From assembly GCF_022045235.1 (NCBI RefSeq), contig NW_027266286.1:27156001-27220000 (forward strand): 64,000 bases of DNA. The letters run 5' to 3'. The notes below the pieces were generated by a model. It was not told the DNA's origin and did not search any database. It saw nothing but the letters and a program-made list of their open reading frames with translations. The stretch's first letter is position 1; the number at the start of each line of letters is the position of its first letter. Shown here one piece after another: positions 1,040 to 61,260 of the stretch. The position numbers and the translations under genes were made by a program. The DNA is from Haliotis cracherodii (Eukaryota).

Positions 1040-1800
1040 GGTGAGGGACATAACCCAGTATGCCACCCATCGATCGTAAAGAAGCTGATATGGTTCCTTC
1101 GCGTCTTGGTAGTTACATCTACTTCTAAATGAATCATTGAGCTGAAAGGGCGGCCCATTGACGCAGGAGCGCGGGCAAAGACCAGTCAGCAATATTCCAG
1201 TTCTCACGGCGCCTTTGAAACAATAGCCAATGAATGACAACACGAAGGAAAGGTCATCGTACCAAGGTCAGTATCACAATCTGATGTTCATCGCATCAGC
1301 CTCTGTTTGATCATCTCGACAACTTCTTCATTTTGGGCAGACCGCCTCCGTGGTCTAGCGGTAGAGCGTCCGCCCGGAGAGCGGAAGGTCCGGGTTTGGA
1401 TCCCCGGCCACGTCTGACCAAAAGACGTTAATAGATGGTACTTGTTGTTACCCTGTCTGGCGCTCGGCATTAAGGGGCTAAAACAAGCACTGGTCGGCTC
1501 GGAGTCAGTATACTGTGTCTGAGTGGGGTATTCATGTAAACTGCGGCATGGTATCTCAGTGATCTAGCACTAAAAGTCGGCATCAGTCCGGACTAGTACA
1601 AGCAGCCACACAAACACACACACGTACATGCACGTCGCTATATAAGTGCGATAATCTTGGACGCGACGTTAAACCCCATTTAACCTCACCTCACCTCATT
1701 TTGGGCAACATAGAGGTAGTCAGTAAAAGGGTGTAATATTATTAACATCATTAACATGATTACCATCAGATCCTTTCACTCTGATACCGTACCTCTGATA
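1040..1800 (-). mobile_element. Possible very old non-LTR retrotransposon (RTE/RTE-X-like) ORF2 C-terminal fragment, interrupted by a family C SINE
   Basis: By-eye minus-strand translation gives QNEEV..MIKQRLMR and GPP...YQLLYDRWVAYW, resembling the TNEEL / IRQRRLR / GRP...DR..W motifs at RTE-type ORF2 ends; heavily frameshifted. Confidence 0.3.
1340..1695 (+). mobile_element. SINE family C (tRNA head plus Meta/MESC-like core), full length
   Basis: A box TGGTCTAGCGG; degenerate B box GGTTTGGATCC; core ACCAAAAGACGTT...CTGGTCGGCTCGGAGTCAGTATACTGTGTCTGAGTGGGG...CTAGCACT; (CACCT)n tail; 12-bp TSD TCATTTTGGGCA at 1328-1339 and 1696-1707. Confidence 0.9.
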
Positions 1801-3089: not shown

Positions 3090-3252
3090 GTGAGTGAGTG
3101 AGTATGGTTTTACGCCGCTTTTAGCAATATTCCAACATCACGGCGGGGGACACCAGAAATGGGCTTCACATATTGTACCAATGTCGGGAATCGAACCCGG
3201 GTCTTCAGCTTGACGAGCGAACGCTTTAACCACTAGGCTACCCGACCGCCCC
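3090..3252 (-). mobile_element. SINE family A, near full length
   Basis: Minus strand has A box TAGCCTAGTGG, GTC anticodon-like loop, B box GGTTCGATTCC and (ACTC)n tail; TSD AACAYCGCTTTGA at 3077-3089 and 3253-3265. Confidence 0.92.
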
Positions 3253-6548: not shown

Positions 6549-6821
6549 GACCCCTGAAGATCCAGGGTAGAATAGGTCTTCAGCATCCCATGCTTGTCGT
6601 AAAAGGCGAGTATGCTTGTCGTAAAAGGCGACTAACGGGATCGGGTGGTCAGACTCAATATAGTCTACATACAATAAAGATTGATTGACTCGCTGACTTG
6701 GTTGATGCATTTCATCGATCCCAATTGCTTGGAACGATGTTAATCACTGGATTGTCTGGTCCAGACCGCCATCATATAGATGGAATATTGCTGTGTGCGG
6801 CGTAAAACAACAAACCAAACC
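6549..6821 (+). mobile_element. Short retroposon family B (non-tRNA head)
   Basis: GACCCCTGAAGATCCAGGGTAGAATAGGTCTTCAG head, duplicated ATGCTTGTCGTAAAAGGCGA motif, shared tail; ~30-bp insertion between duplicated GACTC near 6653-6692. Confidence 0.9.
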
Positions 6822-7083
6822 AGTTGGGTATAACGCCGCTTTTAACAGTACTACAGTTATGTCGCGGTGTGTCAGCTTAATGTGTGAGGAAAGCCCGAAG
6901 TGATGCCGGTTTCAGACGGTTACCTCTTCGGTGAAACTCACGAGCACGGATATGGTGCTGACAAACCTAGAAACATAATTGGGGCGAACCGGGATTCGAA
7001 CCACAATCATGGGTTTCTAATGTGCCCAAGGGGCTCTGCACAGCGAATCGCGGCGCCTAAGACGACGGGGCCATCCGTACCAC
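6822..7083 (-). mobile_element. SINE family D (tRNA-Leu-like head), tail-to-tail with a family B copy
   Basis: Homologous to the 20409-20678 and 24743-24975 copies. Confidence 0.85.
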
Positions 7084-9085: not shown

Positions 9086-9244
9086 AGGTGAGGTGAGGTG
9101 AAATGGGGTTTAACGTCGCGTCCAATATTATTGCACTTACATTGCGACGTGCATGCACGTGTGTGTGTGGCTGCTTGTACTAGTCTGGACTGATGGCGGT
9201 TTATAGCGCTAGCCCACTGAGATACCATGCTGCAGTTTAACATG
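9086..9244 (-). mobile_element. SINE family C, 5'-truncated
   Basis: (AGGTG)n tail and TTTAACGTCGCGTCCAA...GCGACG are the reverse complement of the family C 3' half. Confidence 0.85.
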
Positions 9245-9482: not shown

Positions 9483-9786
9483 GACCGCCTCCGTGGTCTA
9501 GTGGAAGAGCGTCCGCCCGAGAGTGGAAGGTCCGGGGTTCGATCCCCAGCCGCGTCATACCAAAAGACGTAAAAAGACGATACTTGTTGTTATCCTGTCG
9601 GACTGGTCGGAGTTAGTATACTGTGTCTGAGTGGGGTATTCATGTTATACTGTGGCATGGTATCTCAGCGGGCTAGCGCTATAAATCGGTATCAGTCCGG
9701 ACTAGTACAAGCAGCCACACACGCGCATTTACGTCGCTATATAAGTACAATAATCTTGGACGCGACGTTAAACCCCATTTCACCTC
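9483..9786 (+). mobile_element. SINE family C with internal deletion
   Basis: A box, B box GGTTCGATCC and core present; 11-bp TSD ACGATAGCCCT at 9471-9481 and 9787-9797. Confidence 0.9.
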
Positions 9787-10375
9787 ACGATAGCCCTCTG
9801 ACAGCTTTTTACGATGGATCCGAACAATATGCTAGATTCTTATTGCGGTTAACCATTACCTCGAGTGCGATAAAGAATAACAACCGTTACACGAGTTTAG
9901 GAGAATGTACGTGCTGAAAGCAATGCAAATGATTACGTTATCTGTGATAGTGGTAGGCGAACTCTCATTCCGTAATCCAGTTATCCGACTTTTTACACTC
10001 AGAGTCTTCATGGCTCGACTTTGGTCAGAGGTCAATTGAATAGTCACATTTACACCTTAAGTAGGTGACATAAAACGGCCTGTCAAGTAGGGAGATTAAA
10101 TCAAGGCATACATATGTAATCTGTACACATCTGTAAACCCTTCATAGACCAAACTAAGAAAAAAATAAAAAAATGATTCGAATAGATTTGAAAACAGATT
10201 GACATTTGAAAACATGTTAGAATATTCAGAAACAATGGGTCTCGTTATTTCAAGTTTATTACATCGCTTTATATGATATAACCCCAGTGTATCCTTATGT
10301 GGTTTAAGATGATAATTATAATTTAATGGTCCTTGCAGCATCAGCACCACTTATATTGTACTCCTCTTGTCTCGA

Positions 10376-11480: not shown

Positions 11481-11621
11481 AAGCGTTCGCTCGTCACGAG
11501 GAAGACCCGGGTTCGATGCCCCACATGGGTACAATGTGTGAAGACCATTTCTGGTGTCCCCCGCCGTGATATTGCTGTTATAGTGCTAAAAACGGCGTAA
11601 AACCATACTCATTCACTCACT
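11481..11621 (+). mobile_element. SINE family A, 5'-truncated
   Basis: AAGCGTTCGCTCGTCACG...CGGCGTAAAACCATACTC. Confidence 0.9.
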
Positions 11622-15485: not shown

Positions 15486-15645
15486 TGAGTGAGTGTGGTT
15501 TTACGCCGCTGTTAGCAATATTCCAGCACTATCACGGCGGGGGACACCAGAAATGGGCCTCACATATAATACCCATGTGGGGAATCGAACATGTGTCTTT
15601 GGCGTGACGAGCGAACGCTTTAACCACTGGGCTACCCGACCGCCC
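15486..15645 (-). mobile_element. SINE family A, full length
   Basis: Complete head, body and tail; TSD TATWAGTATAG at 15475-15485 and 15646-15656. Confidence 0.92.
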
Positions 15646-17459: not shown

Positions 17460-17702
17460 GACCAGTGAAGATTCGGGTTAGAATTGGTCTTCAGCAACCC
17501 ATGCTTGTCGTAAGAGACGACTATCGGGATCGGGTGGTCAGGCTCGCTGTCTTGGTTGATGCATGTCATCGCATCCAAAATGCATGGATCGATGCTCATG
17601 ATGTCAATCACTGGATTGTCTTGTCTAGATTCTATTATTTACAGACCGCCGTCATATAGCTGTAATATAGCTGAGTGCGGCGTTAAACAACAAACAAACA
17701 AA
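17460..17702 (+). mobile_element. Family B, full length, single head-motif variant
   Basis: Starts GACCAGTGAAGATTCGGGTTAG; 12-bp TSD ACATGTTATCAA at 17447-17458 and 17703-17714. Confidence 0.92.
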
Positions 17703-20081: not shown

Positions 20082-20253
20082 TGGGTCGGTGGGGTAGCCC
20101 TGTTGTCAAAGCGTTCGCTCGTCACGCCGAAGACCCGGGTTCGATTCCCCACACTCGTACACTGTGTGAAGCTCATTTCTGGTGTCCCCCGCCGTGATAT
20201 TGCTTGAATATTGCTAAAAGCGACATAAAACCATATAAAACCATACTCACTCA
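20082..20253 (+). mobile_element. SINE family A, full length
   Basis: GGGTCGGTGGGGTAGCC...GGTTCGATTCCCC...CATACTCACTCA. Confidence 0.9.
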
Positions 20254-20408: not shown

Positions 20409-20678
20409 TGAGTGAGTTGGGTTTAGCGCCGCTTTTAACAGTATCAAAGTTTTATCACGGCGTGTAAGCTTAATGTGGGAGGAAAGCCCGAAGTGATGCA
20501 GGTCTCAGACGTTTACCACTTCGGTGAAACCCACCGGTATGGTGCTGACAAACATAGAAACATAATCGGGGCGAACCGGGATTCGAACCCACAATCATAG
20601 GTTTCTGGCGTGCCCAAGGGATGCAACTCTGCACAGCGAATCGCGGCGCCTATGACGACTGGGCCACCCGTGCCCCCC
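20409..20678 (-). mobile_element. SINE family D, full length
   Basis: Minus strand: GGGGCACGGGTGGCCCAGTCGTCATAGGCGC head, GGTTCGAATCCC B box, shared 3' module, (ACTC)n tail. Confidence 0.88.
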
Positions 20679-22446: not shown

Positions 22447-23635
22447 CACTCTTAAAAAAAAGAAACACACAGGTAGAATGTAGTTCATTCAACCTGACTA
22501 TACAAAAAATCCGGTATCTAAATTGGATATATGTTATTGGAAAATGTTGGTGGCCTGATATTCGACAAACGGTGCGTCAAAACGCAGCCATTGTCGATTT
22601 GCAATGTGTTAAACGGAATTGTTTTCACACTTGTTCAAAAATGCCATAGAGGAAAACAGTAAAGCAAAATGCACGTGAAAGCTATGGCATTCGTAACTCG
22701 TGGTAGTGGCTATGAAAAGGAGAGCATAAGCAAATAATTTGTCATTCAATTGTCAACATTTTTCAAGTTTGAAAATGCCGAGACTCAGCGCTACCAATCG
22801 GAACATCGCCATAGGGCGTATCCAAAGAGGATAATCGCAGTCTGCTGTTGTACTCCACTTAAACGTCCACTACAGCACGATTTGCCACCTTTGGGACCGA
22901 TACACACAGTTCAATTCCACTGCAGACCGTCCGAGAACCGGCCGACAAAGAGTTACCACCCCTGCACAGGATCGCTATATTCGACTGTTCCATCTATGTC
23001 ATCGCAATGCCACAGATACGGAGACTGCAGGACGCATCCCTGGTTTGAGGAGGATATCGGACCAGACTGTCAGGAACCATCTTCGCGAGGCTGAAATCCG
23101 ACCCAGAAGACCAGTTATCGTCCCTGTTTTGCAACAGATACATTGACAGCGACGCTTGCGTTGGTGCCATACTGTACAGCCTTGGAATTTGAGAAACTGG
23201 AGACGAGTGCGGTTTAGCGATGAATCACGATTTCTTCTTCACCGGCGAGATGGAAGACAACGTGTTTATCGACGTCAATTCAATATGAGCGTTTTGACCC
23301 TGATTGTATACGTGAATTCACAGCTCGAGTCACGGTAGACTACCTTCATAATTCCAACATCAACGCTTTGCCGTGGCCAACGCGTTACAAGCAGAATGAC
23401 GCGGAATTCAACAGGACAGAATTCGTACACTTGAGATACTGAGTTCAGAGCAACATTGATGACTTATTAGACATGACAATGAACAGTTTTCAATGCCTTT
23501 GTACAACGACAACATGTGACTATCGAGCTCCAAAGTTCCACATTTGTATCTATGATATTAAAATAAATATATCGACTTTCTTAGGTTCAATAAATTTACT
23601 AAAAATCTACCTGTGCGTTTCTTTTTTTGAAGAGT
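22447..23635 (+). mobile_element. Tc1-family DNA transposon, defective
   Basis: TA-flanked ~31-bp TIRs CACTCTTAAAAAAAAGAAACACACAGGTAGA / TCTACCTGTGCGTTTCTTTTTTTGAAGAGT around a transposase pseudogene. Confidence 0.92.
22775..23440 (+). pseudogene. Tc1 transposase pseudogene (HTH domains and first catalytic D; rest of DDE deleted)
   Basis: MPRLSATNRNIAIGRI...DRPRTGRQRVTTPAQDRYIR...ISDQTVRNHL...WRRVRFSDESRF...DGRQRVYRR, with two in-frame stops and a large deletion after 23275. Confidence 0.9.
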
Positions 23636-27996: not shown

Positions 27997-28187
27997 CGGT
28001 CTCACGACGAGGACACTCGTATCGCTGTGGAATATCTACTGACGGCTTTACTCTAGAGTCGATGCATTAAAAGTACCGATAGGCTGTACGCAAGTTTTCG
28101 TTGTGTTTGTGGATAAGTGTACGGAGACACGGTTCGGAGTTTTGTGGTCGGCTAGATGAAAGTCGACAGAAGGTAAACTTGAACACG

Positions 28188-28410
28188 ATGTCGCGAGTGA
28201 AAGGATTACCTTGGTTCTGTACCTGTGTTTTAGTGCTGGTCGCGTTGGCACGTGTGTCGCAGTCTTATGACTATGCAAAGAGGATATGTGCCCGATTGCC
28301 CATTCACACAACTGAGCAAAGATCACCCGGGAATAATGGATTTAAGATAATTGTTGAAAGTGACACCGAATCGGACATTACGAAATATCGACCAGGTGAA
28401 AAGTACACAG
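28188..28410 (+). CDS. SPON1: F-spondin / spondin-1-like protein, first coding exon (signal peptide plus N-terminal reeler domain); phase-1 intron follows
   Basis: Hydrophobic signal peptide MSRVKGLPWFCTCVLVLVALARVSQS, then C-x-R-x-P...SPGNNGFKIIV...KYRPGEKYT, resembling the F-spondin reeler start (e.g. PGDNGF.I.I.G....Y.PG..YTV); canonical donor CAG|GTGAGT at 28410/28411. Confidence 0.8.
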
Positions 28411-31194
28411 GTGAGTTCGACCCTTTAACAAATAGTAAGCTTTTTTGGCACTTCTAAAGAACCTGCTTATATAGACTGTCTGGGGTACATGTTTATTTCA
28501 CGCGCCACTACAATCACACCTAGCAGACGACATTTTTCACACGATTTCACTATCGTGTACAGTAGCAACTATACGGAGCTATCCATTTGATCTAGTCGCG
28601 TGGAATTTGAATCTTGTCCTCCCGACAAAGTGGCCTTCGTTTGCCAATGAATAGATAAGCTTAAACTTCAAAACGTGTTAGCTCGCCATTTTTTACGGCT
28701 TTATCTGAGACGGGACACGCACACATCATCCACACAATATAAATTTAACCGTACATTATACATAGAGCTAGGATATTGTGTGATATTAACGTGCTGTTCT
28801 GAACGGTCGATCGATAAGACTACATTAGAATAGGACAATCGTATCTGTTAAATGTATCTATTCAGTAAATGCTATGTTATTATGACAAATATAATTAAAA
28901 ATCATTCCAAATTAGATCGCCTTAAAAAGGAAAACATATCTTTTTAAAGGCACAAATAATAAATTTTATTATAAATATTTTTTAAATAGCATCACAAAGG
29001 TGAAACTAATTAAACACTACCAAGCCATCGTTCCGTTAATGTACTATTGTGTCTATGTCGGATTGAACTTGAATTATGTCAGCTTTGACACGACACGTGA
29101 CTAGTTCTGTGGGTTGTTGTCAGGCTGCGCTACAAAGGCAACCACAAGCATGTAGTCTGTAGTCACTCTCTGTAGCATTTCCTTTAGCACACATTCCGTC
29201 TGCATTACTTGCACAAAACACCCTGCTACAGGAAGGCAATGTGTAGGCGATATACGCAACGTGGCTTAAAAGAAACGTTTGTTTCATGTCTGAGCAAGTG
29301 CCATCGACTTTTCTCTGAAAATAGCAGGGTTATTACTTAAATATTCTTCAGAGGAGGCTTTAGAAAGGTGGTATATGCAAAACGTCGCGTTGTAGCAGTA
29401 TAGGGGGTTAGCGGTATATGGATTATATGTAGCGAAGGTTATTGTTAACCGTAGTCACTACAACTGTTACCTATCAGAATTACAACACTTTGTGTTTATT
29501 CTTCTTCACATACATATAATCGTCAATGTGATTCTAAAATCCTCAGAATGAAGTTCTGTATCACGTTCCAGTGACTTGCGGAAGTTAGTGACAAAATTGT
29601 GAACGAGACACGAGAGCCCAATCTGACTGTAATAGTACTGATATTAATAATGGATAAGAACTGCAATATGGTTTGTGGCTGTTTACTTTTCTATGACTAA
29701 TCGTATATGTATAATATAAACGTATTAATGAATTCGTTTTATCCTGAAGCCTTTTGGGTCGGATTATAAAGTCATAGGTGGAGGGATTGACATATGGAGA
29801 GATCGAGATAAAAGTTCATAAAACGATTTTTATATTCCTTGTGAAAGATAGCTGTTATGTCAGTCTATGTACATATTTGTAAATTACTCTGTGTGATTAG
29901 GTTAGATTTGAAATAACCAAAATAAAGATAGTTGAACAACTAGGTTAATTTGAGACGAAATTGTAAAAAGTGAAATATGTTAGAAATTGTCATATATTTT
30001 GAAAATTAGAGAAAAACGATTTTTTTGTAAGTATACTGATGGAAATAAATAACGCAACGGCTTTGAAAGGAAGCACGTGTATGGAGGTACACATCTATAC
30101 GCATCAAATAAAACATCAGATGCATCATTTCACTATGTGATGTTTTGTATAACAAGCATGAATACGGTAATATAACAGTTTCGTTAATTTCACGAGTTGC
30201 CTTATTTCTGACCATCAGTATGTATAGGCTTGATATCGAGCTTAATTCCTGACTTTTGTATCGATGCAGCGAATACGTAGTGTTATTGAACTGTATCTTA
30301 AATCTCAACCCGCGGCTGATATATACGACAGCAGCGCCGTGATCGTTGGGTGTGACCTGCAATGTATTGTGGAAAGGTATGCTGTGTGATGCCAACAGGC
30401 GCTCCAACATAACAGCATCCCGAGTTTCAGCTTCGCATATTTCTATACACGTGGTCTATTTACATATATATCGTGAATATCTTTGCAAAAAGTCCTTGAC
30501 TATTTTCAGACTGATGGTTAAAGTAAATGCACACGTGTTGCAGTCACGCATCGCATCTCAGCATCAATGCAATCTATAAACCTTTCGCCATTTTCGTTAA
30601 GCGCCATCATGTAATACAAATAACATTTACATATATCTATTTCGTTTTCGATGAAAGAATTTCAGGAAAACTATGAAACTGTGTTAGCATTTGGAATTTA
30701 TTTTTGGTATTTATGTGTTAGCCTTTACACATTTTCCGAATGAGTAAACGGGGTTTATATATACCTCGTGTAAACAGCAGATTTATAAACATCTATCTCT
30801 TGGATCTATCTGCATTGTGTGGGATGCCAGTGACATCACAGTATAATCACCATTCCGCTTGAGTAACCCTCAAATGTTAATCAATACCTCTGTAATCCCA
30901 GCCTCTATTCCCTGGGCTCTCACATGGCCGTGTTTAGAGGCTCTCTCGAGAGCTGACAGATGGACTTGGGAGGTTTTATCAGGCAACACCATCCATGTAA
31001 CTTATTGAGGATCGCGAGAAGGGAGGATAACACAGACACATTATGTAATCAGGATGATGATACCTCGAGACTGTCTAATTGAGCTGCATCCCTGAGTATG
31101 GTCTATGTCGATTGAGCTACCCTCACGAATAATGCAAGAGAAGTCGTCACAAACTCAATCTCATTAAGTTAGGTCCTTTACTCCGGATTGATAC

Positions 31195-32138: not shown

Positions 32139-32299
32139 AGTGAGCATACACAGGCATGGAGATAGATACAAGGGTCCTCGTGTGATATGTCATCTATTAT
32201 GCAATGCACTTCATCTCCTTCCATTGTGACAAATACTCTGGACCTATTCGCTACCAAAGCTTCGTTTTTCGACCTATCCTAAAGACACTACGCTGGATG

Positions 32300-33162
32300 T
32301 ATTAAAGGCACCTCGTACAATATACCGTTCACTCTACGAAGGCATGGTGATATATTAAAGGCACCTCGTACAATATACCGTTCACTCTACGAAGGCATGG
32401 TGATATATTAAAGGCACCTCGTACAATATACCGTTCACTCTACGAAGGCATGGTGATATATTAAAGGCACCTCGTACAATATACCGTTCACTCTACGAAG
32501 GCATGGTGATATATTAAAGGCAGCTCGTATGAAACTGTTTACTCTACGAAGGCATGGGGATATATTAAAGGCACCTCGTACAATAAAATGTTTACTCTAC
32601 GAAGGCATGGTGATATATTAAAGGCACCTCGTACAATATACCGTTCACTCTACGAAGGCATGGTGATATATTAGAGGCACCTCGTACAATATACTGTTTA
32701 CTCTACGAAGGCATGGTGATATATTAAAGGCACCTCGTATGAAACTTTTTACTCTACGAAGGCATGGGGATATATTAATGGCACCTCGTACAATATACTG
32801 TTTACTCTACGAAGGCATGGTGATATATTAAAGGCACCTCGTACAATATACTGTTTACTCTACGAAGGCATGGTGATATATTAAAGGCACCTCGTATGAA
32901 ACTTTTTACTCTACGAAGGCATGGTGATATATTAAAGGCACCTCGTATGAAACTTTTTACTCTACGAAGGCAAGGGGCGCCTCGTAAGAGAGTGTTCACT
33001 CTACTGAAGCATGGTGATATAGTAACGGCACCTCGTAAGATCGTGTTTAATCTACAAGGCACCTCGTAAGATACTCTAGATTCAACACAATCAGGGTGAT
33101 ATATTGCACCTACTAAGATATTGTTTACTCTACGAAGGCATGGTGATATATTATTTACTCTA
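32300..33162. repeat. 53-bp minisatellite, ~15 copies, degenerating rightwards
   Basis: TATTAAAGGCACCTCGTACAATATACCGTTCACTCTACGAAGGCATGGTGATA; starts at 32300, 32353, etc. Confidence 0.95.
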
Positions 33163-35886: not shown

Positions 35887-36949
35887 ATACACTCAAGCCT
35901 GTGTTTGGACACAGCTACATGTATACTCAAGTCTATGTTTGGACACAGCTACATGTATACTCAAGTCTATGTTTGGACACAGCTACACGTATACTCAAGT
36001 CTGTGTTTGGACACAGTTACATGTATACTCAAGTCCGTCTTTGGACACAGCTACACGTATACTCAAGTCTATGTTTGGACACAGCTACATGTATACTCAA
36101 GTCTATGTTTGGACACAGCTACACGTATACTCAAGTCTATGTTTGGACACAGCTACATGTATACTCAAGTCTGTGTTTGGACACAGCTACATGTATACTC
36201 AAGTCTGTGTTTGGACACAGCTACATGTATACTCAAGTCTGTGTTTTGACACAGCTACATGTATACTCAAGTCTATGTTTGGACACAGCTACATGTATAC
36301 TCAAGTCTATGTTTGGACACAGCTACATGTATACTCAAGTCTATGTTTGGACACAGCTACACGTATACTCAAGTCTGTGTTTGGACACAGCTACATGTAT
36401 ACTCAAGTCTGTGTTTGGACACAGCTACATGTATACTCAAGTGTATGTTTGGACACAGCTACATGTATATTCAAGTCTATGTTTGGACACAGCTACACGT
36501 ATACTCAAGTCTGTGTTTGGACACAGCTACATGTATATTCAAGTCTATGTTTGGACACAGCTACACGTATACTCAAGTCTATGTTTGGACACAGCTACAC
36601 GTATACTCAAGTCTGTGTTTGGACACAGCTACATGTATACTCAAGTCTGTGTTTGGACACAGCTACATGTATACTCAAGTCTATGTTTGGACACAGCTAC
36701 ACGTATACTCAAGTCTGTGTTTGGACACAGCTACATGTATACTCAAGTCTGTGTTTGGACACAGCTACACGTATACTCAAGTCTGTGTTTGGACACAGCT
36801 ACATGTATACTCAAGTGTATGTTTGGACACAGCTACATGTATACTCAAGTCTGTGTTTGGATACAGCTACATGTATACTCAAGTCTGTGTTTGGACACAG
36901 CTACACGTATACTCAAGTCTGTGTTTGGACACAGTTACATGTACACTCA
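35887..36949. repeat. 34-bp minisatellite, ~31 copies
   Basis: GTATACTCAAGTCTRTGTTTGGACACAGCTACAY; starts at 35921, 35955, etc. Confidence 0.97.
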
Positions 36950-37289
36950 GGTCAATAGAGTTCTCATACGAATTATATACACCAAGTAGCTTCGCATTTC
37001 ACAAGAAGTACCTGCACTTTCGCTGTACACTCTATCACATTCATGCATACACACACGTCCAGTATCCTAGCATTGCAGTACACGATATCACGTGCATATA
37101 CAACTGTTTTGTATGCTACAGTTTTGCGGTACATAGTTGTATTCCATACACAAACCCGCAGTGTGGCACTATCTCTGTCTGAGATCAGATAAGCACATGC
37201 TCCTGGGTGATGTTTCTGCAGCCTTGGTATGTAGGTCAACTCGGGTGTCCTCCCACTATGGACGTACACGTCGCTCACTTCAACACCGT

Positions 37290-38257
37290 CGTCTCAGGTG
37301 TAAAGGGGGGACTGTGACAAAGTCGTCTCAGGTGTTAAAGGGGGGCTGTAACAGAATCGTCTGGGGTGTTAAAAGGGGGCTGTAACAGAGTCGGCTCAGG
37401 TGTTAAAAGGGGGCTGTAACAGAGTCGGATTAGGTGTTAAAAGGGGGCTGTAACAGAGTCGGCTCAGGTGTTAAAAGGGCACTGTAACAGGATCGTCTGA
37501 GGTGTTAATATTGGGCTGTAACAGAGTCGGCTCAGGTGTTAAAAGGGGCTGTAACAGAGTCGGCTCAGGTGTTAAAAGGGGCTGTAACAGAGTCGGCTCA
37601 GGTGTTAAAAGGGGCTGTAACAGAGTCGGTTCAGGTGTTAAAAGGGGACTGTAACAGAGTCGGTTCAGGTGTTAAAAGGGGACTGTAACAGAGTCGGTTC
37701 AGGTATTAAAAGGGGACTGTAACAGAGTCGGTTCAGGTGTTAAAAGGGGACTGTAACAGGATCGTCTGAGGTGTTAATATTGGGCTGTAACAGAGTCGGC
37801 TCAGGTGTTAAAAGGGGCTGTAACAGAGTCGGCTCAGGTGTTAAAAGGGGGCTGTAACAGAATCGGTTCAGGTGTTAAAAGGGGGCTGTAACAGAGTCGG
37901 TTCAGGTGTTAAAAGGGGACTGTAACAGGATCGTCTGAGGTGTTAATATTGGGCTGTAACAGAGTCGGCTCAGGTGTTAAAAGGGGCTGTAACAGAGTCG
38001 GCTCAGGTGTTAAAAGGGGGCTGTAACAGAGTCGGTTCAGGTGTTAAAAGGGGGCTGTAACAGAGTCGGTTCAGGTGTTAAAAGGGGACTGTAACAGGAT
38101 CGTCTGAGGTGTTAATATTGGGCTGTAACAGAGTCGGCTCAGGTGTTAAAAGGGGCTGTAACAGAGTCGGCTCAGGTGTTAAAAGGGGCTGTAACAGAGT
38201 CGGCTCAGGTGTTAGAGGGGGCTGTAACAGAGTCGTCTGGGGTGTTAAAAGGGGGAC
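37290..38257. repeat. 33-35-bp minisatellite with higher-order structure, ~28 copies
   Basis: TCAGGTGTTAAAAGGGG(G)CTGTAACAGAGTCGGY with recurring variant GATCGTCTGAGGTGTTAATATTGGG. Confidence 0.95.
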
Positions 38258-42395: not shown

Positions 42396-42590
42396 TTTGG
42401 TTTCTTGTTTTACGCCGCCCTCAGCAATATTTAAGCTGTATGACGGCGGTCTGTAAATAATCGAGTCTGGACCATACAATCCAGTGATTGATATAAGCAT
42501 CAATCTACCCGAATGGGATACGATGACATGCATTTTTTACGTCAAGCATTGGTTGCTAAAGACCTATTCTACTCCGGATCTTACAGGTTT
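42396..42590 (-). mobile_element. Family B copy, internally deleted
   Basis: CTCAGCAATATTTAAGCTGTATGACGGCGGTCTGTAAATAATCGAGTCTGGACC and AAGACCTATTCTACTCCGGATCTT. Confidence 0.8.
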
Positions 42591-43720: not shown

Positions 43721-43887
43721 GTGAGTGAGTGAGTATTATTTTACGCTGCTTTTAGCAATATTCCAGCAATATCATGGCGGGGGACACCAGAAATGGGCTT
43801 CACACATTGTACCCATGTCAGGAATCAAACCCGGGTCTTCGGCGTGACGAGCGAACGCTTTAACCACTAGGCTACCCGACCACCCCT
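43721..43887 (-). mobile_element. SINE family A, full length
   Basis: 11-bp TSD GGCTGGTAAAA at 43710-43720 and 43888-43898; several CpG-to-TpG/CpA changes. Confidence 0.92.
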
Positions 43888-47534: not shown

Positions 47535-47701
47535 GAGTGAGTGAGTGAGTATGGTTTTACGCCGCTTTTAGCAGTATTCCAGCAATATCACGGCGGGGGA
47601 CACCAGAAATGGTCTTCACACATTGTACCCATGACGGAAATCGATCCCGGGTCTTCGGTGCGACGAGCGACGCTTTAACCACTAGGCTACCCGATCGCCC
47701 C
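47535..47701 (-). mobile_element. SINE family A, full length
   Basis: 15-bp TSD TTTGGGTCTTAAAGT at 47520-47534 and 47702-47716. Confidence 0.93.
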
Positions 47702-50479: not shown

Positions 50480-50740
50480 GACCCATGAAGATCTGGGCTA
50501 GTATAGGTCTTCAGCAACCTATGTTTGCTGGAACGGGTGACTATGCTTGTCATAAGAGGCGACTAACATGATCGGGTGGTCAGGCTCGCTGACTTGGTTG
50601 ATGCATGTCATCGTATCCCAATTGCAGAGATTGATTCTCATGATGTCAATCACTGGATTGTCTGGTCCAGACTAGATTATTTGCCGACCGCTGTCATATA
50701 GCTGGAATATTGCTGAGTACAGCGTTAAACAAACAAACCA
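50480..50740 (+). mobile_element. Family B, full length
   Basis: GACCCATGAAGATCTGGGCTAGTATAGGTCTTCAG head, duplicated motif, body and tail. Confidence 0.9.
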
Positions 50741-51557: not shown

Positions 51558-51824
51558 GACCCATGAAGATGCGGGATAGAATAGGTCTGCAGTAACCCAT
51601 GCTTACAGTAAAAGGCAGCTATGCTTGTCGTAAGAGGCGACTAAAGGGATTGGATGGTCAGACTTGCTGACTTGGTTGATGCACGTCATCAATTCCAATT
51701 GTGTGGATCGATGCTCATGATGTCACTGGTTTGTCTGGTCCAGACTCGATTATTTATAAACTGCCGTCATATAGCTGGAATATTGCCAAGTTAGGCGTTA
51801 AATAACAAACAAACAAACAAACAA
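51558..51824 (+). mobile_element. Family B, full length
   Basis: 13-bp TSD CATAGCAAATAGT at 51545-51557 and 51825-51837; starts exactly at GACCC. Confidence 0.93.
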
Positions 51825-52920: not shown

Positions 52921-53179
52921 TTGGTTGGTTTGGTTTGTTGTTTAACGCCGCACTCAGCAATATTCCAGCTATACTGTAAATAATCGAGTCTGGACCAGAC
53001 AATCCAGTGATTGATATCATGAACATCGATCCACGCAATAGGGACGTATGACATGCATCAACCAAGTCAGCGAGCTTGACCACCCGATCCCGTTAGTCGC
53101 CTCTTACGACAAGCATAGTCGCCTTTTACGGCAAGCATGGGTTGCTGAAGACCTATTCTACCCTGGGTCTTCAGGGGTA
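52921..53179 (-). mobile_element. Family B, near full length
   Basis: 12-bp TSD CCAATGCTGGGG at 52909-52920 and 53180-53191; minus-strand head TACCCCTGAAGACCCAGGGTAGAATAGGTCTTCAG. Confidence 0.93.
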
Positions 53180-54127
53180 CCAATGCTGGGGAACAGTACT
53201 GCCCCTGACTGTTTACAAGACTTTTATCTATATTACAGACCCAGCTATTGTTATTGATTGTAGTTCTTTTTCCCGACATCGTTCAGCAAAGCCCCCCATT
53301 ATTAAACAATTACAGATAATACCTTAAGAATTATTTTTGTATAATTTACATGTATGGATTCAGGTTGTATTGTCAAGTAATGTAAAGCATTAATACCAAT
53401 TATATTCACACAAATATTACTTTGATAAAAAAATGTAGAATCACATTTTCAATCTCAACACTTAGTAAAGTGGTCATAATTTGTCAGTCTCAAAAGAATA
53501 TGTTCTCTAAATTTATTCATTAGTGGCTTAAGAATCCTTTGCTAGCTCGGAGGTGTTTTGGGTTCCATCAGAGCAAGTTAATCACATCAAATAACATTTA
53601 AATGGACTCAGAATGCAAGGATGAACGACTTTTAAAACCTATTTTTCACAGGTGTTATTTTTTTGTTTACAAAAAGAAAAACTTGCATCGTCATTGTTGA
53701 TGACATGAATATGGAACTGCCAATGAGTGCTCTACAAGCTACTGAACTGTAATTTAAAAGACTGTAGAAAGAATAGCTTAAAAGGCTTTATGTTTTCACA
53801 GTGTACTTTAACCACTTAAAGTATCAAATTCAGATTAAAAGATACTATGAAAATATGTTTGTATAAGTATGTGTTTAATATTTAAAAAAATTTAAGTTTC
53901 TTGGTGCAATGTGCCGCAAGGCAAGTAGATAAAAATGTTTATGGAGAAAATGACAGATTTCTTACAGCTGCTTAATATAATTGGCATTTTAGATGTGTTG
54001 AAGCATCATTGCTTTGATTGCCATTGCATGTCACTTGTAATGACACATATCATCACATGCTTTTCTTTCTGTCTTTTGCTATGGTACTGATGTGATTATA
54101 CCATCAGTGTTAAATCTTGCTCGCTGA

Positions 54128-55251
54128 ATCACTCACTCAACCACTCACTCAACCATTCACTCAACCCCTCACTCAATACCAACTCACTCATACACTCGCT
54201 TAACCACTCACTTAACCACTCACTCAATACCCACTCAGCCACTCACTCAACCACTCACTCAACCACTCAACCACACACTCAACCACTCACTCAGCCACTC
54301 ACTCAACCACTCACTCAATCACTCACTCACTCACTCACTCAACCACTCACTCAACCACTCACTCAGCCACTCACTCGACCACACACCCAACCACTCACTC
54401 AACCACTCACTCATCCACTCACTCAACCACTCACCCAACCACTCCACTCACTCAACCACTCACTCAACCACTCACCCAACCACTCACTCAACCACACACT
54501 CATCCACTCACCCAACCACTCACTCAACCACACACTCATCCACACACTCAACCACACACTCATCCACTCACTCAACCACTCACTCAACCACTCACCCAAC
54601 CACTCACTCGACCACACACTCATCCACACACTCAACCACACACTCATCCACTCACTCAACCACTCACTCAACCACTCACTCAACCACTCACTCAACCACT
54701 CACCCAACCACTCACCCAACCACTCACTCGACCACACACTCATCCACTCACTCAACCACTCACTCATCCACTCACTCAACCACTCACTCATCCACTCACT
54801 CATCCACTCACTCATCCACTCACTCATCCACTCACTCAACCACTCACTCAACCACTCACTCAACCACTCACTCATCCACTCACTCAACCACTCACTCATC
54901 CACTCACTCAACCACTCACCCAACCACTCCACTCATTCAACCATTCACTCAACCATTCCCTCAACCACACACTCAACCACTCACTCAACCACACACTCAA
55001 CCACACACTCAACCACACACTCAACCACTCACTCATCCACTCATTCACTCACTCGACCACACACTCAACCACTCACTGATCCACTCACTCAACCACTCAC
55101 TCAACCACTCACTCACCCACTCACTCAACCACTCACTCAACCACTCACTCAACCACTCACTCAACCACTCACTCAACCACTCACTCATCCACTCACTCAA
55201 CCACTCACTCAACCACTCACTGATCCACTCACTCAACCACTCACTCACTCA
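54128..55251. repeat. 12-bp minisatellite (CAACCACTCACT)n related to (ACTC)n
   Basis: About 90 units with variants CATCCACTCACT, CAACCACACACT, CAACCACTCACC. Confidence 0.95.
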
Positions 55252-56179
55252 GCTTTGCTTGCTGTCATATATTACTACACTATCACACATCCCAACAGTT
55301 TTGTAGGACAACAACGCCACACAAATATGCATGTCATCCTGGCAATAATGACGTCTCCAAATACATGGGTGGGACTTCGACAACAAATTAGTCAAAGCAA
55401 ATTTATAAACACATACAATATCATGTGATGTATATCAACCTCTCTCGGCTGATTGTGTATTCTATATGCCAATTTTATGGCTATGCGTCAAACGACAGAT
55501 CAAAGAATATGGCTCGCATGCTTTTGTCAAATTTCAAAGAGCGGTTGTAGGATTAGGCAATTTTGCATTGCCCATGGGTGACCAATGTGTTGTGTAAACT
55601 TAGGCTGCGTTATCTACAAGGCAAAAATGTGAAGATGAAAAGATAGATGAATTCAGGGAATTTGAAGTCAACAGCCTTACTGTATGTTGTATATGAAAGA
55701 CAAATTGAAGGTTACATTTATTCATAGAGTAACCTTGTCAATCTATTTGTGGAATGTGATTTAATAACATCTTGGCATTATAGCAGATCGTGAGCCCCAC
55801 CAACATTTTGCGAGCATCCTCCCTGAGATTGATTGTTACTGTTGAATGATAAATTGCGATTTTGAATTTTATTTGAATTGATTAAGGTGTGTCCGTGACA
55901 AATTTTTTATTGAAAAAAAAGAAGTTTGCGCCTTGTATTCTGTTGGTTGCTTAGAATAACTTTATAAATAGATGGCATTTCTTAACGAAACATGAAACTT
56001 GTACCTGTGAATTAATCATGACGGCCATGTCAGTGTCATTGTCCAAGTAGGGGAACACCTATTATCAAAATTGGTCATCTTAGACCATAATGAATTTTAT
56101 TTCCACATGTTCAAGAGGCGTGTAATATTCATGTTGAAATTGATACACAAAGATCATGACTTTTTTTTATAGCTAATAT

Positions 56180-56961: not shown

Positions 56962-57256
56962 GACCGCCTTCGTGGTCTTGTGGTAAAAAGTCCGCCCGGA
57001 GAGCAGAAGGTCTGGGGTTTTATCCCCGGCTGCGTCATACCCAAAGACGTTAAAAGATGGTACTTGTTGTTACCCTGTCTGGGGCTCGGCATTAAGGGGC
57101 TAAAACAAGGACTGGTCGGCTTGGAGTCAGTATACTGTGTCTGAGTTAAGTATTCATGTTAAATACATGGTACAGCCACACACACACAAATGTGCATGCA
57201 CATCGCTATATAAGTGGAATAATCTTGGACGCGACATTAAACCCCATTTCACCTCA
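56962..57256 (+). mobile_element. SINE family C with internal deletion
   Basis: TSD CTTGTAAGAAG at 56951-56961 and 57257-57267. Confidence 0.9.
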
Positions 57257-60679: not shown

Positions 60680-61260
60680 GGTGTGTTGTGTAATATTCCA
60701 GCAATATGATGGTGGCCTGTAAATAAGCAAATCTGGACCAGACAATCCTGTGATTGGTACTATGATTTTGTTTGTTTATTGATAACACCGCACTCAGCAG
60801 TATTCCAGCTATATGACGGCGGTCTGTAAATAATCGAGTCTGGACCAGACAATCTAGTTAATGATGTCATGAACATCGATCCATTCAATTGGGATATGAT
60901 GACATGCATCAACTAAGTCAGCGAGTCTGACCACCCGATCCTGTTAGTCGCCTTTTACGACAAGCATTGTCACCTTTTACGGCAAGCATGGGTTGCTGAA
61001 GACCTATTCTACCCCAGAATCTTCACGGGCCAGATAGGGTAGTGAATAGTGTATAGTGTAGTGAGCCTGACCACCCAATCCCGTTAGTTGCCTCCTACGA
61101 CGAGCATAGTCACCTCTTACGGAAAGCATGGTCTGGTGCTATGAATAATGTCAAGGTAGCATGACACATCATCAAGCTAGTCTCTGTGTCTGATCACCTA
61201 ATGCATTAAGTCCCATTAGACAAGCATAGGTTGCTGGTGAGCGATTCTAATTTGAAATAC
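60680..61260 (-). mobile_element. Nested family B cluster: old copy split by a younger composite insertion (60766-61133)
   Basis: Full copy at 60767-61030, partial copy at 61060-61130, flanking TGGTRCTATGA at 60755-60765 and 61134-61144. Confidence 0.75.

Follow-up and report, generated by a model that had tools for sequence, protein, structure and literature searches.

A predicted two-tier 3′ hairpin common to four SINE families and to Nimb-like LINEs of the abalone Haliotis cracherodii

In the genome of Haliotis cracherodii, intact LINEs and four SINE families (A to D) end in the same 3′ element. With a probability of roughly 0.8, this module represents the 3′ terminus of a Nimb-type LINE carried by the four non-autonomous families, and it likely acts as an RNA handle for the ORF2 protein. 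All four families are present in the window, the 64,000-nt stretch analysed here (contig NW_027266286.1, positions 27,156,001 to 27,220,000, forward strand), to which the plain coordinates refer. The parts of a full-length family C element near its start and the other module copies are listed below.

1328..1339 (+): 5′ target-site duplication (TSD) of the family C copy, 12 bp
1340..1695 (+): full-length family C SINE, 356 nt, of apparent MetaSINE/MESC type from by-eye comparison with a published Meta SINE
1350..1408 (+): predicted tRNA-like head (Rfam tRNA 22.4 bits, E 0.025, under the gathering score)
1608..1623 (+): (CA)n microsatellite, as reported for Haliotis MESC SINEs in the open text of PMC4758252
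1633..1668 (+): family C 3′ module
1633-1638 with 1663-1668 (+): outer stem of this module, internal loop 4x3
1643-1646 with 1656-1659 (+): inner stem of this module, 9-nt loop at 1647-1655
1669..1695 (+): TTAAAC linker and (CACCT)n-type tail (tail at 1683-1695)
1696..1707 (+): 3′ TSD, 12 bp, perfect
9114..9149 (−): family C module
9732..9767 (+): family C module of a full copy (9483-9788) with an 11-bp TSD
57201..57236 (+): family C module, worn
17647..17682 (+): family B module of an element headed by LINE 5′ UTR sequence
42413..42448 (−): family B module
6767..6802 (+): family B module
50689..50724 (+): family B module
51762..51797 (+): family B module
52946..52981 (−): family B module, 5′ arm lost
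60786..60821 (−): family B module
47560..47595 (−): family A module of a tRNA-Asp-headed SINE with a 15-bp TSD
15504..15539 (−): family A module
43744..43779 (−): family A module, 11-bp TSD
11562..11597 (+): family A module
20190..20225 (+): family A module
3113..3145 (−): family A module with a 3-nt deletion, 21-nt spacer
20427..20462 (−): family D module with a V-like body (the copy noted earlier as 20409)
6834..6869 (−): family D module

A second family C copy at 1815-2069 has an internal deletion and a C-rich run at its end, and is without the 3′ module. Elsewhere in the window, an open frame at 28083-28457 (+) is exon-like and has the look of a secreted protein with a hydrophobic stretch; the segment after this stretch is presumably reeler/spondin-like. 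Minisatellite and low-complexity arrays occupy 32295-33153, 35888-38255 and 54091-55428, the last with ACTC-like units resembling the tails of families A and D and of the LINEs.

The family C module at 1633-1668 (+) consists of CGTCGC, a 24-nt spacer and GCGACG, followed by TTAAAC and a tail of the (CACCT)n type. When the window is scanned with CGYCGY-Nx-GCGRCG at x = 10-40, eight distinct loci are found at x = 24 and a single degraded family A copy at x = 21, with zero matches at any other length in that range. Genome-wide (1.18 Gb), the pattern with N24, the core of the search suggested in the preliminary description, gives 67,081 + 67,649 = 134,730 strand hits, a count in which self-complementary variants score on both strands, against 101 + 105 = 206 for the reversed control. 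A chance origin of the pattern is rejected on these numbers, and the initial claim that four SINE families have a common 3′ module is upheld. The N23 form reaches 2,066 + 2,067 = 4,133 strand hits and the N25 form 978 + 1,011 = 1,989, the 24-nt spacer thus making up 95.7% of the 23-25-nt total. No model for the module was found with Rfam or ARAGORN. Matches to a relaxed pattern at 23119-23154 and in locus L020 are excluded as part of an unrelated repeated element (22900-23300 in the window), whose short inverted repeat fits that pattern by chance.

In a 384-kb sample comprising the window, its neighbours and 20 spaced regions, 96 SINE modules score well (31 A, 38 B, 9 C and 18 D), from which about 3x10^5 modules are extrapolated for the whole genome. 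Beyond module and tail, the bodies of the four families have no mutual similarity. Their spacers, previously regarded as divergent, are homologous, with 13-20 of 24 positions identical between families, and the majority sequences of A, B, C and D all have 24 nt. The majorities computed for A, B and C equal the consensus modules given earlier; the module first proposed for D derives from one worn copy, and the D majority has the 9-nt loop type of A and B. Indels occur in 11/33 A, 7/44 B, 2/13 C and 1/21 D modules. The 24-nt length within each family is inherited from master copies, and its constancy is not counted as a sign of selection.

The heads of the families differ. Family A begins with a tRNA match (Rfam 34.7 bits, two window copies above threshold) bearing a GTC (Asp) anticodon, which agrees with the tRNA-Asp-like head first assigned to it. 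The front of family C, earlier read as tRNA plus Meta, indeed combines a tRNA-like head (Rfam E 0.025) with a Meta-type domain, and the head and Meta start resemble BivaMeta-SINE1_HyCu by eye. Judged by its sequence, with the tRNA-like head, the Meta domain and the Haliotis-type (CA)n and (CACCT)n, family C is classed as MetaSINE/MESC. In family D, the body is V-like by eye: both Vhc flanks resemble BivaV-SINE2, around a longer central hairpin. The tRNA-Leu-like head ascribed to D finds no match to the Rfam tRNA model.

The pseudoknot head of the original account is found in family B, where a 7-bp helix is kept with three two-sided changes in six rows. Over 62 nt, this head has 77% identity with nt 60-120 of the local LINE 5′ UTR, and the window copies of B give no tRNA hit. 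Because its head matches a LINE 5′ UTR, family B is LINE-headed and LINE-tailed and belongs with the LP-SINEs, not with the tRNA SINEs. Its elements measure ~245-266 nt, in line with the LP-SINE definition of a Nimb 5′ UTR head and a length of ~255 bp. Family B is likely the published Hdi_LP, an identity that stops short of proof because the AATATA hexamer near the published Haliotis LP tail is missing from the B majority. The tails of B (AAAC/AACC) and C (CACCT) are both unlike the (ACTC)n of the LINEs.

The module is predicted to fold in two tiers. Inside the outer 6-bp stem, an inner stem that the preliminary description overlooked is formed by spacer positions 5-8 pairing with 18-21 (4 bp), so that the whole reads as outer stem, internal loop, inner stem and 9-nt loop (U-G-N-A-A-N-A-H-U), followed by a conserved UUAAA and short repeats. 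Across 12 family-level representatives (5 SINE and 7 LINE), 119 of 120 cells hold standard pairs (99.2%), and two-sided changes occur in 7 of 10 pairs, four of six in the outer stem and three of four in the inner. The covariation score is matched by 0 of 500 shuffles, a control that overstates significance because the representatives are related; slid control alignments are 18-59% paired, and RNAalifold, unprompted, recovers both helices. Of the changes in the LINE stems, two are pairs of transitions of CpG type, such as arise neutrally too in dead family C copies. Neither the A-U/C-G change at pair 1 nor any change in the inner stem belongs to this type. The compensation originally seen in family C holds for pair 3, where C-G to U-A is two-sided; at pair 6, the change from U-G to C-G is one-sided. 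The inner stem of family A contains a U-U mismatch. Folded singly against shuffles, copies give z-scores from -1.3 to -4.3, the family C copy at 1627-1680 being weak (z -1.3).

Both stems and the 9-nt loop keep their form in SINE and LINE modules alike. The internal loop alone varies, measuring 4x3 in the SINEs; in the LINEs it is 4x2 (lineage 1) or 3x2 (lineage 2). A total spacer length of 22-24 nt is therefore probably tolerated rather than fixed.

The first lead to these LINEs is a recurrent 23-nt variant of the module that follows an RNase H reading frame at a distance of ~500 nt, and a genome search with this frame yields 150 scored matches. In the older lineage-1 subfamily, which is the closest, the module stands at the terminus of 25 of 30 loci. 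Selection for long ORFs gave a further 20 loci of lineage 1. Each is an element of 6.05-6.5 kb that carries ORF1 and an ORF2 within the range 1230-1261 aa. Their ORF2 matches endonuclease (PF14529/PF03372), reverse transcriptase (RVT_1, PF00078) and RNase H (PF00075) models in Pfam; ORF1 gives no Pfam hit and shows three CCHC-type knuckles by eye. These elements are 75-100% identical to one another, many LINE copies being near-identical, and in 20/20 the module is terminal, with a 23-nt spacer followed by a TWAAA-type linker and (ACTC)n. A pattern for this 23-nt form has 4,141 genome hits against 3 for its control. Lineage 2, revealed late by a divergent query, is ~65% identical to lineage 1 in ORF2 and carries the module with a 22-nt spacer at the end of 12/12 loci; this reading covers 20 of 30 query loci, the omitted 10 ranking among lineage-1 hits. 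Modules of 22 nt, considered as a stand-alone mini-family, proved to be truncated copies of lineage 2. Full-length LINEs ending in the module, as anticipated in the preliminary description, thus exist. From their domain content, a by-eye tail match and the mollusc clades named in the literature, they appear to be of Nimb type (I group): Nimb and Ingi are the sole I-superfamily clades named for molluscs in the open text of PMC10294476, and the lineage-2 module agrees by eye with the published T.granosa_0 I/Nimb tail. The homologues of these LINEs bear no clade names.

Several other features of these LINEs were noted. The first 60 nt of lineage 1 are predicted to adopt an HDV-like ribozyme fold placed exactly at the 5′ end in 20/20 elements; at L052:908-967 (G000:C4), the Rfam model RF02682 scores 27.5 bits (E 0.005, under the gathering score). 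The first ~300 nt of the 5′ UTR, comprising this ribozyme-like fold and the pseudoknot that serves as the family B head, are nearly identical between the two lineages (L052 versus L287 and L289-L292), and the sequences suggest either UTR exchange or strong constraint. Intact lineage-1 LINEs lie dense and nested at ~20.9-21.7 Mb of C2, ~4.2-5.6 Mb of C6 and ~35.5-35.9 Mb of C23, which may mark hotspots of insertion or clusters related to silencing. Another LINE, I-group-like and distant (L130:4028-9740, minus strand, and L217-L246; ORF2 34% identical), is very young, with many 100% identical copies, and ends in a similar-looking 6-bp stem with a 21-nt spacer, TTAAA and (GTAA)n.

SINE and LINE modules are identical at 25-34 of 41 positions, and apart from the B head the homology between SINEs and LINEs is limited to module and tail. 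By small margins, the nearest LINE is lineage 2 for A, B and D and old lineage 1 for C. C has the outer stem of old lineage 1. Pair 3 is common to A, B, D and lineage 2, and the lineage-2 subfamily L257 has exactly the loop seen in A and B. No LINE with a 24-nt spacer was found in narrow genome searches, which covered two patterns and the divergent-query loci. The pattern with LINE-like upstream bases gives 23 hits, mostly SINE-type modules, and is a weak test since its context fits only ~6 of 20 known LINE ends; the GTCAC-stem pattern gives 77 hits, nearly all CpG-decayed family C together with ~4 LINEs with a 1-nt insertion. A query with just the endonuclease domain led back to lineage 1. 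As no 24-nt LINE was found, the real SINE partner may belong to an extinct or unsampled lineage.

Taken to its full extent, this would mean that an extinct or unsampled 24-nt Nimb lineage was the ancient source of the SINE tails, that the present 22- and 23-nt LINEs do not mobilise them, and that each reverse transcriptase is strict on geometry. Such an origin would account for the 24 nt of all four families and of several published bivalve SINE tails, and it fits SINE copies that are mostly 6-10% diverged next to many near-identical LINE copies; the late discovery of lineage 2 with a divergent query implies that more lineages may exist, and L2 LINEs discriminate strictly among cognate loops, as described in the available text of PMC4176376. 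It is nonetheless unlikely, given the presence of young SINE copies (minimum divergence 0-2.4%), the two targeted 24-nt patterns that gave no LINE family and the L257 loop in families A and B. Still less probable is that the hairpin is kept for RNA 3′-end formation or stability while the reverse transcriptase reads the terminal repeats alone. The conserved UUAAA after the stem could conceivably act in 3′ processing; yet the hairpin stays constant where the terminal repeats vary by family, a single processing signal would hardly be expected in both Pol III-type SINEs and long LINE RNAs, and in established stringent LINEs it is hairpins of this sort that ORF2p binds. The original proposal, that one LINE lineage mobilises all four families with the fixed 24-nt spacer as the recognition determinant, is hardly tenable: the 24 nt do prevail in the four majorities and in 95.7% of 23-25-nt hits, but the module occurs at 23 and 22 nt in two LINE lineages whose ORF2s are ~65% identical, tails published for bivalves span 22-24 nt, the SINE length is inherited and broken by indels in every family, and the families divide between old lineage 1 (outer stem of C) and lineage 2 (pair 3 of A, B and D).

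The reading of the module as a Nimb-type LINE terminus borrowed by the SINEs can also be set beside the insertion signatures. TSDs of 11-14 bp flank 16/20 lineage-1 LINEs, and among full SINE copies TSDs measure 9-15 bp in A (7/19), 7-14 bp in B (9/18), 8-12 bp in C (3/5) and 9-15 bp in D (6/10); the signatures of SINEs and LINEs agree in TSD length. By analogy with stringent L2 LINEs, ORF2p would bind the stem and loop of the SINE RNA. The endonuclease would then nick the target, and the terminal repeats may anneal there and prime reverse transcription, leaving TSDs of 11-14 bp. Transcription would proceed from the heads, which would supply Pol III promoters of tRNA type in A, C and probably D, and a piece of LINE 5′ UTR in B.

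The 5′ ends of truncated LINE copies are unevenly placed. Among 30 loci chosen by the 3′ half of the module alone, 9 ends (8 independent), the majority of them TSD-flanked, fall between -3 and +7 nt relative to the stem base. Of the others, 4/30 lie inside the module, 5/30 in the adjoining 93 nt and the remaining 12 still farther upstream. In an overlapping set chosen by the whole module, 15 of the 39 with an assignable start of homology begin at the hairpin foot. Both are small samples from contig C1, with part of the classification done by eye. This pile-up at the hairpin foot suggests that the fold exists during copying. SINE modules without an upstream body number only 5/96. Three small-RNA runs place 10 reads in total on the LINE 3′ end, an uninformative number, and their ends do not accumulate at the hairpin foot. 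As separate observations, L168 and L169 contain a hairpin-only LINE insertion with a 14-bp TSD within a family D SINE body. Just upstream of a family B module, at L004:1465-1495, antisense small RNAs of ~31 nt, a piRNA-like size, share a single 5′ end (63 molecules in X22 and 9 in X23, the run being matched by species label only).

Much of this setting is already in print. The sharing of Nimb LINE tails with mollusc Meta and V SINEs is published: in the open text of Martelossi et al. 2024 (PMC11481361), the tails of bivalve Meta and V SINEs are assigned to Nimb, different SINE superfamilies bearing Nimb tails as here. The bivalve pair Tgra_SINE-7_Meta / T.granosa_0 I/Nimb from that work shows, by eye, a like outer stem, inner stem, 9-nt loop and TTAAA; it differs in a 22-nt spacer, the study deals with bivalves only, and the terms ‘stem’ and ‘secondary structure’ are absent from its main text. 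In Nishihara et al. 2016 (PMC4824008), the tail of the abalone MetaSINE HalSINE1 is described as common to bivalve Meta, MD and V SINEs, and one LINE clade is inferred; the ‘red box’ tail there is that of BivaMeta/BivaMD/BivaV-SINE1/-SINE3. The module is present in its supplementary sequences with spacers of 23-24 nt, whereas its accessible text names no partner LINE and has folds drawn for CR1 and L2 tails instead. The portions available of Matetovici et al. 2016 (PMC4758252) describe Haliotis MESC (Hdi) and LP-SINEs (Hdi_LP/Hmi_LP) with a partner ‘as yet unidentified’. The Hdi MESC has a (CA)n stretch and a (CACCT)n tail as in family C (327 bp), and the LP-SINEs, of 255 bp with a head from the Nimb 5′UTR, resemble family B, the sequences being compared by description.

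For the mechanism, stringent tail recognition is documented for UnaL2/UnaSINE1 and ZfL2-1/-2 (Hayashi et al. 2014, PMC4176376), and the tested cases named in the consulted stringent-LINE literature are L2, R2 and SART1 elements. As here, the LINE and SINE of these systems have in common a 3′ stem-loop with short terminal repeats, and the bipartite reading of stem and loop by ORF2p, as set out in the available text, is the model adopted for the abalone module. They differ in belonging to the L2 clade and in being shown experimentally; the present case, argued from sequence, concerns an I-group LINE with RNase H and a two-tier hairpin. Since the class of mechanism is established and Nimb partners are published, a specialist would find the sharing itself unsurprising. 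A literature search confined to open text found no covarying Nimb-tail fold, abalone partners or truncation peak at the hairpin foot. What is added here is a covariation-backed fold for the Nimb tail, together with LINEs that, intact and TSD-flanked, are candidate partners for those abalone SINEs whose partner had been called unidentified.

In conclusion, about 3x10^5 modules in this genome would rest on tail recognition, and the natural mutational series offered by the SINE and LINE modules, with internal loops of 3x2, 4x2 and 4x3 and several stem variants, makes such recognition by an RNase H-bearing I-group reverse transcriptase directly testable. The truncation peak, if upheld in a full count, would bear on where LINE copies become 5′-truncated. 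More tentatively, and at odds well below even, the ~55-nt hairpin with its tail may be a self-sufficient, portable mobilisation tag that works across Nimb reverse transcriptases only ~65% alike, with the RNA cut or the enzyme stopped at its foot and hairpin-only TSD insertions making up about one third of LINE 3′ ends. If so, the module would be at once a minimal retroelement and a ready cassette, and the joining of any head to it could give rise to new SINE families.
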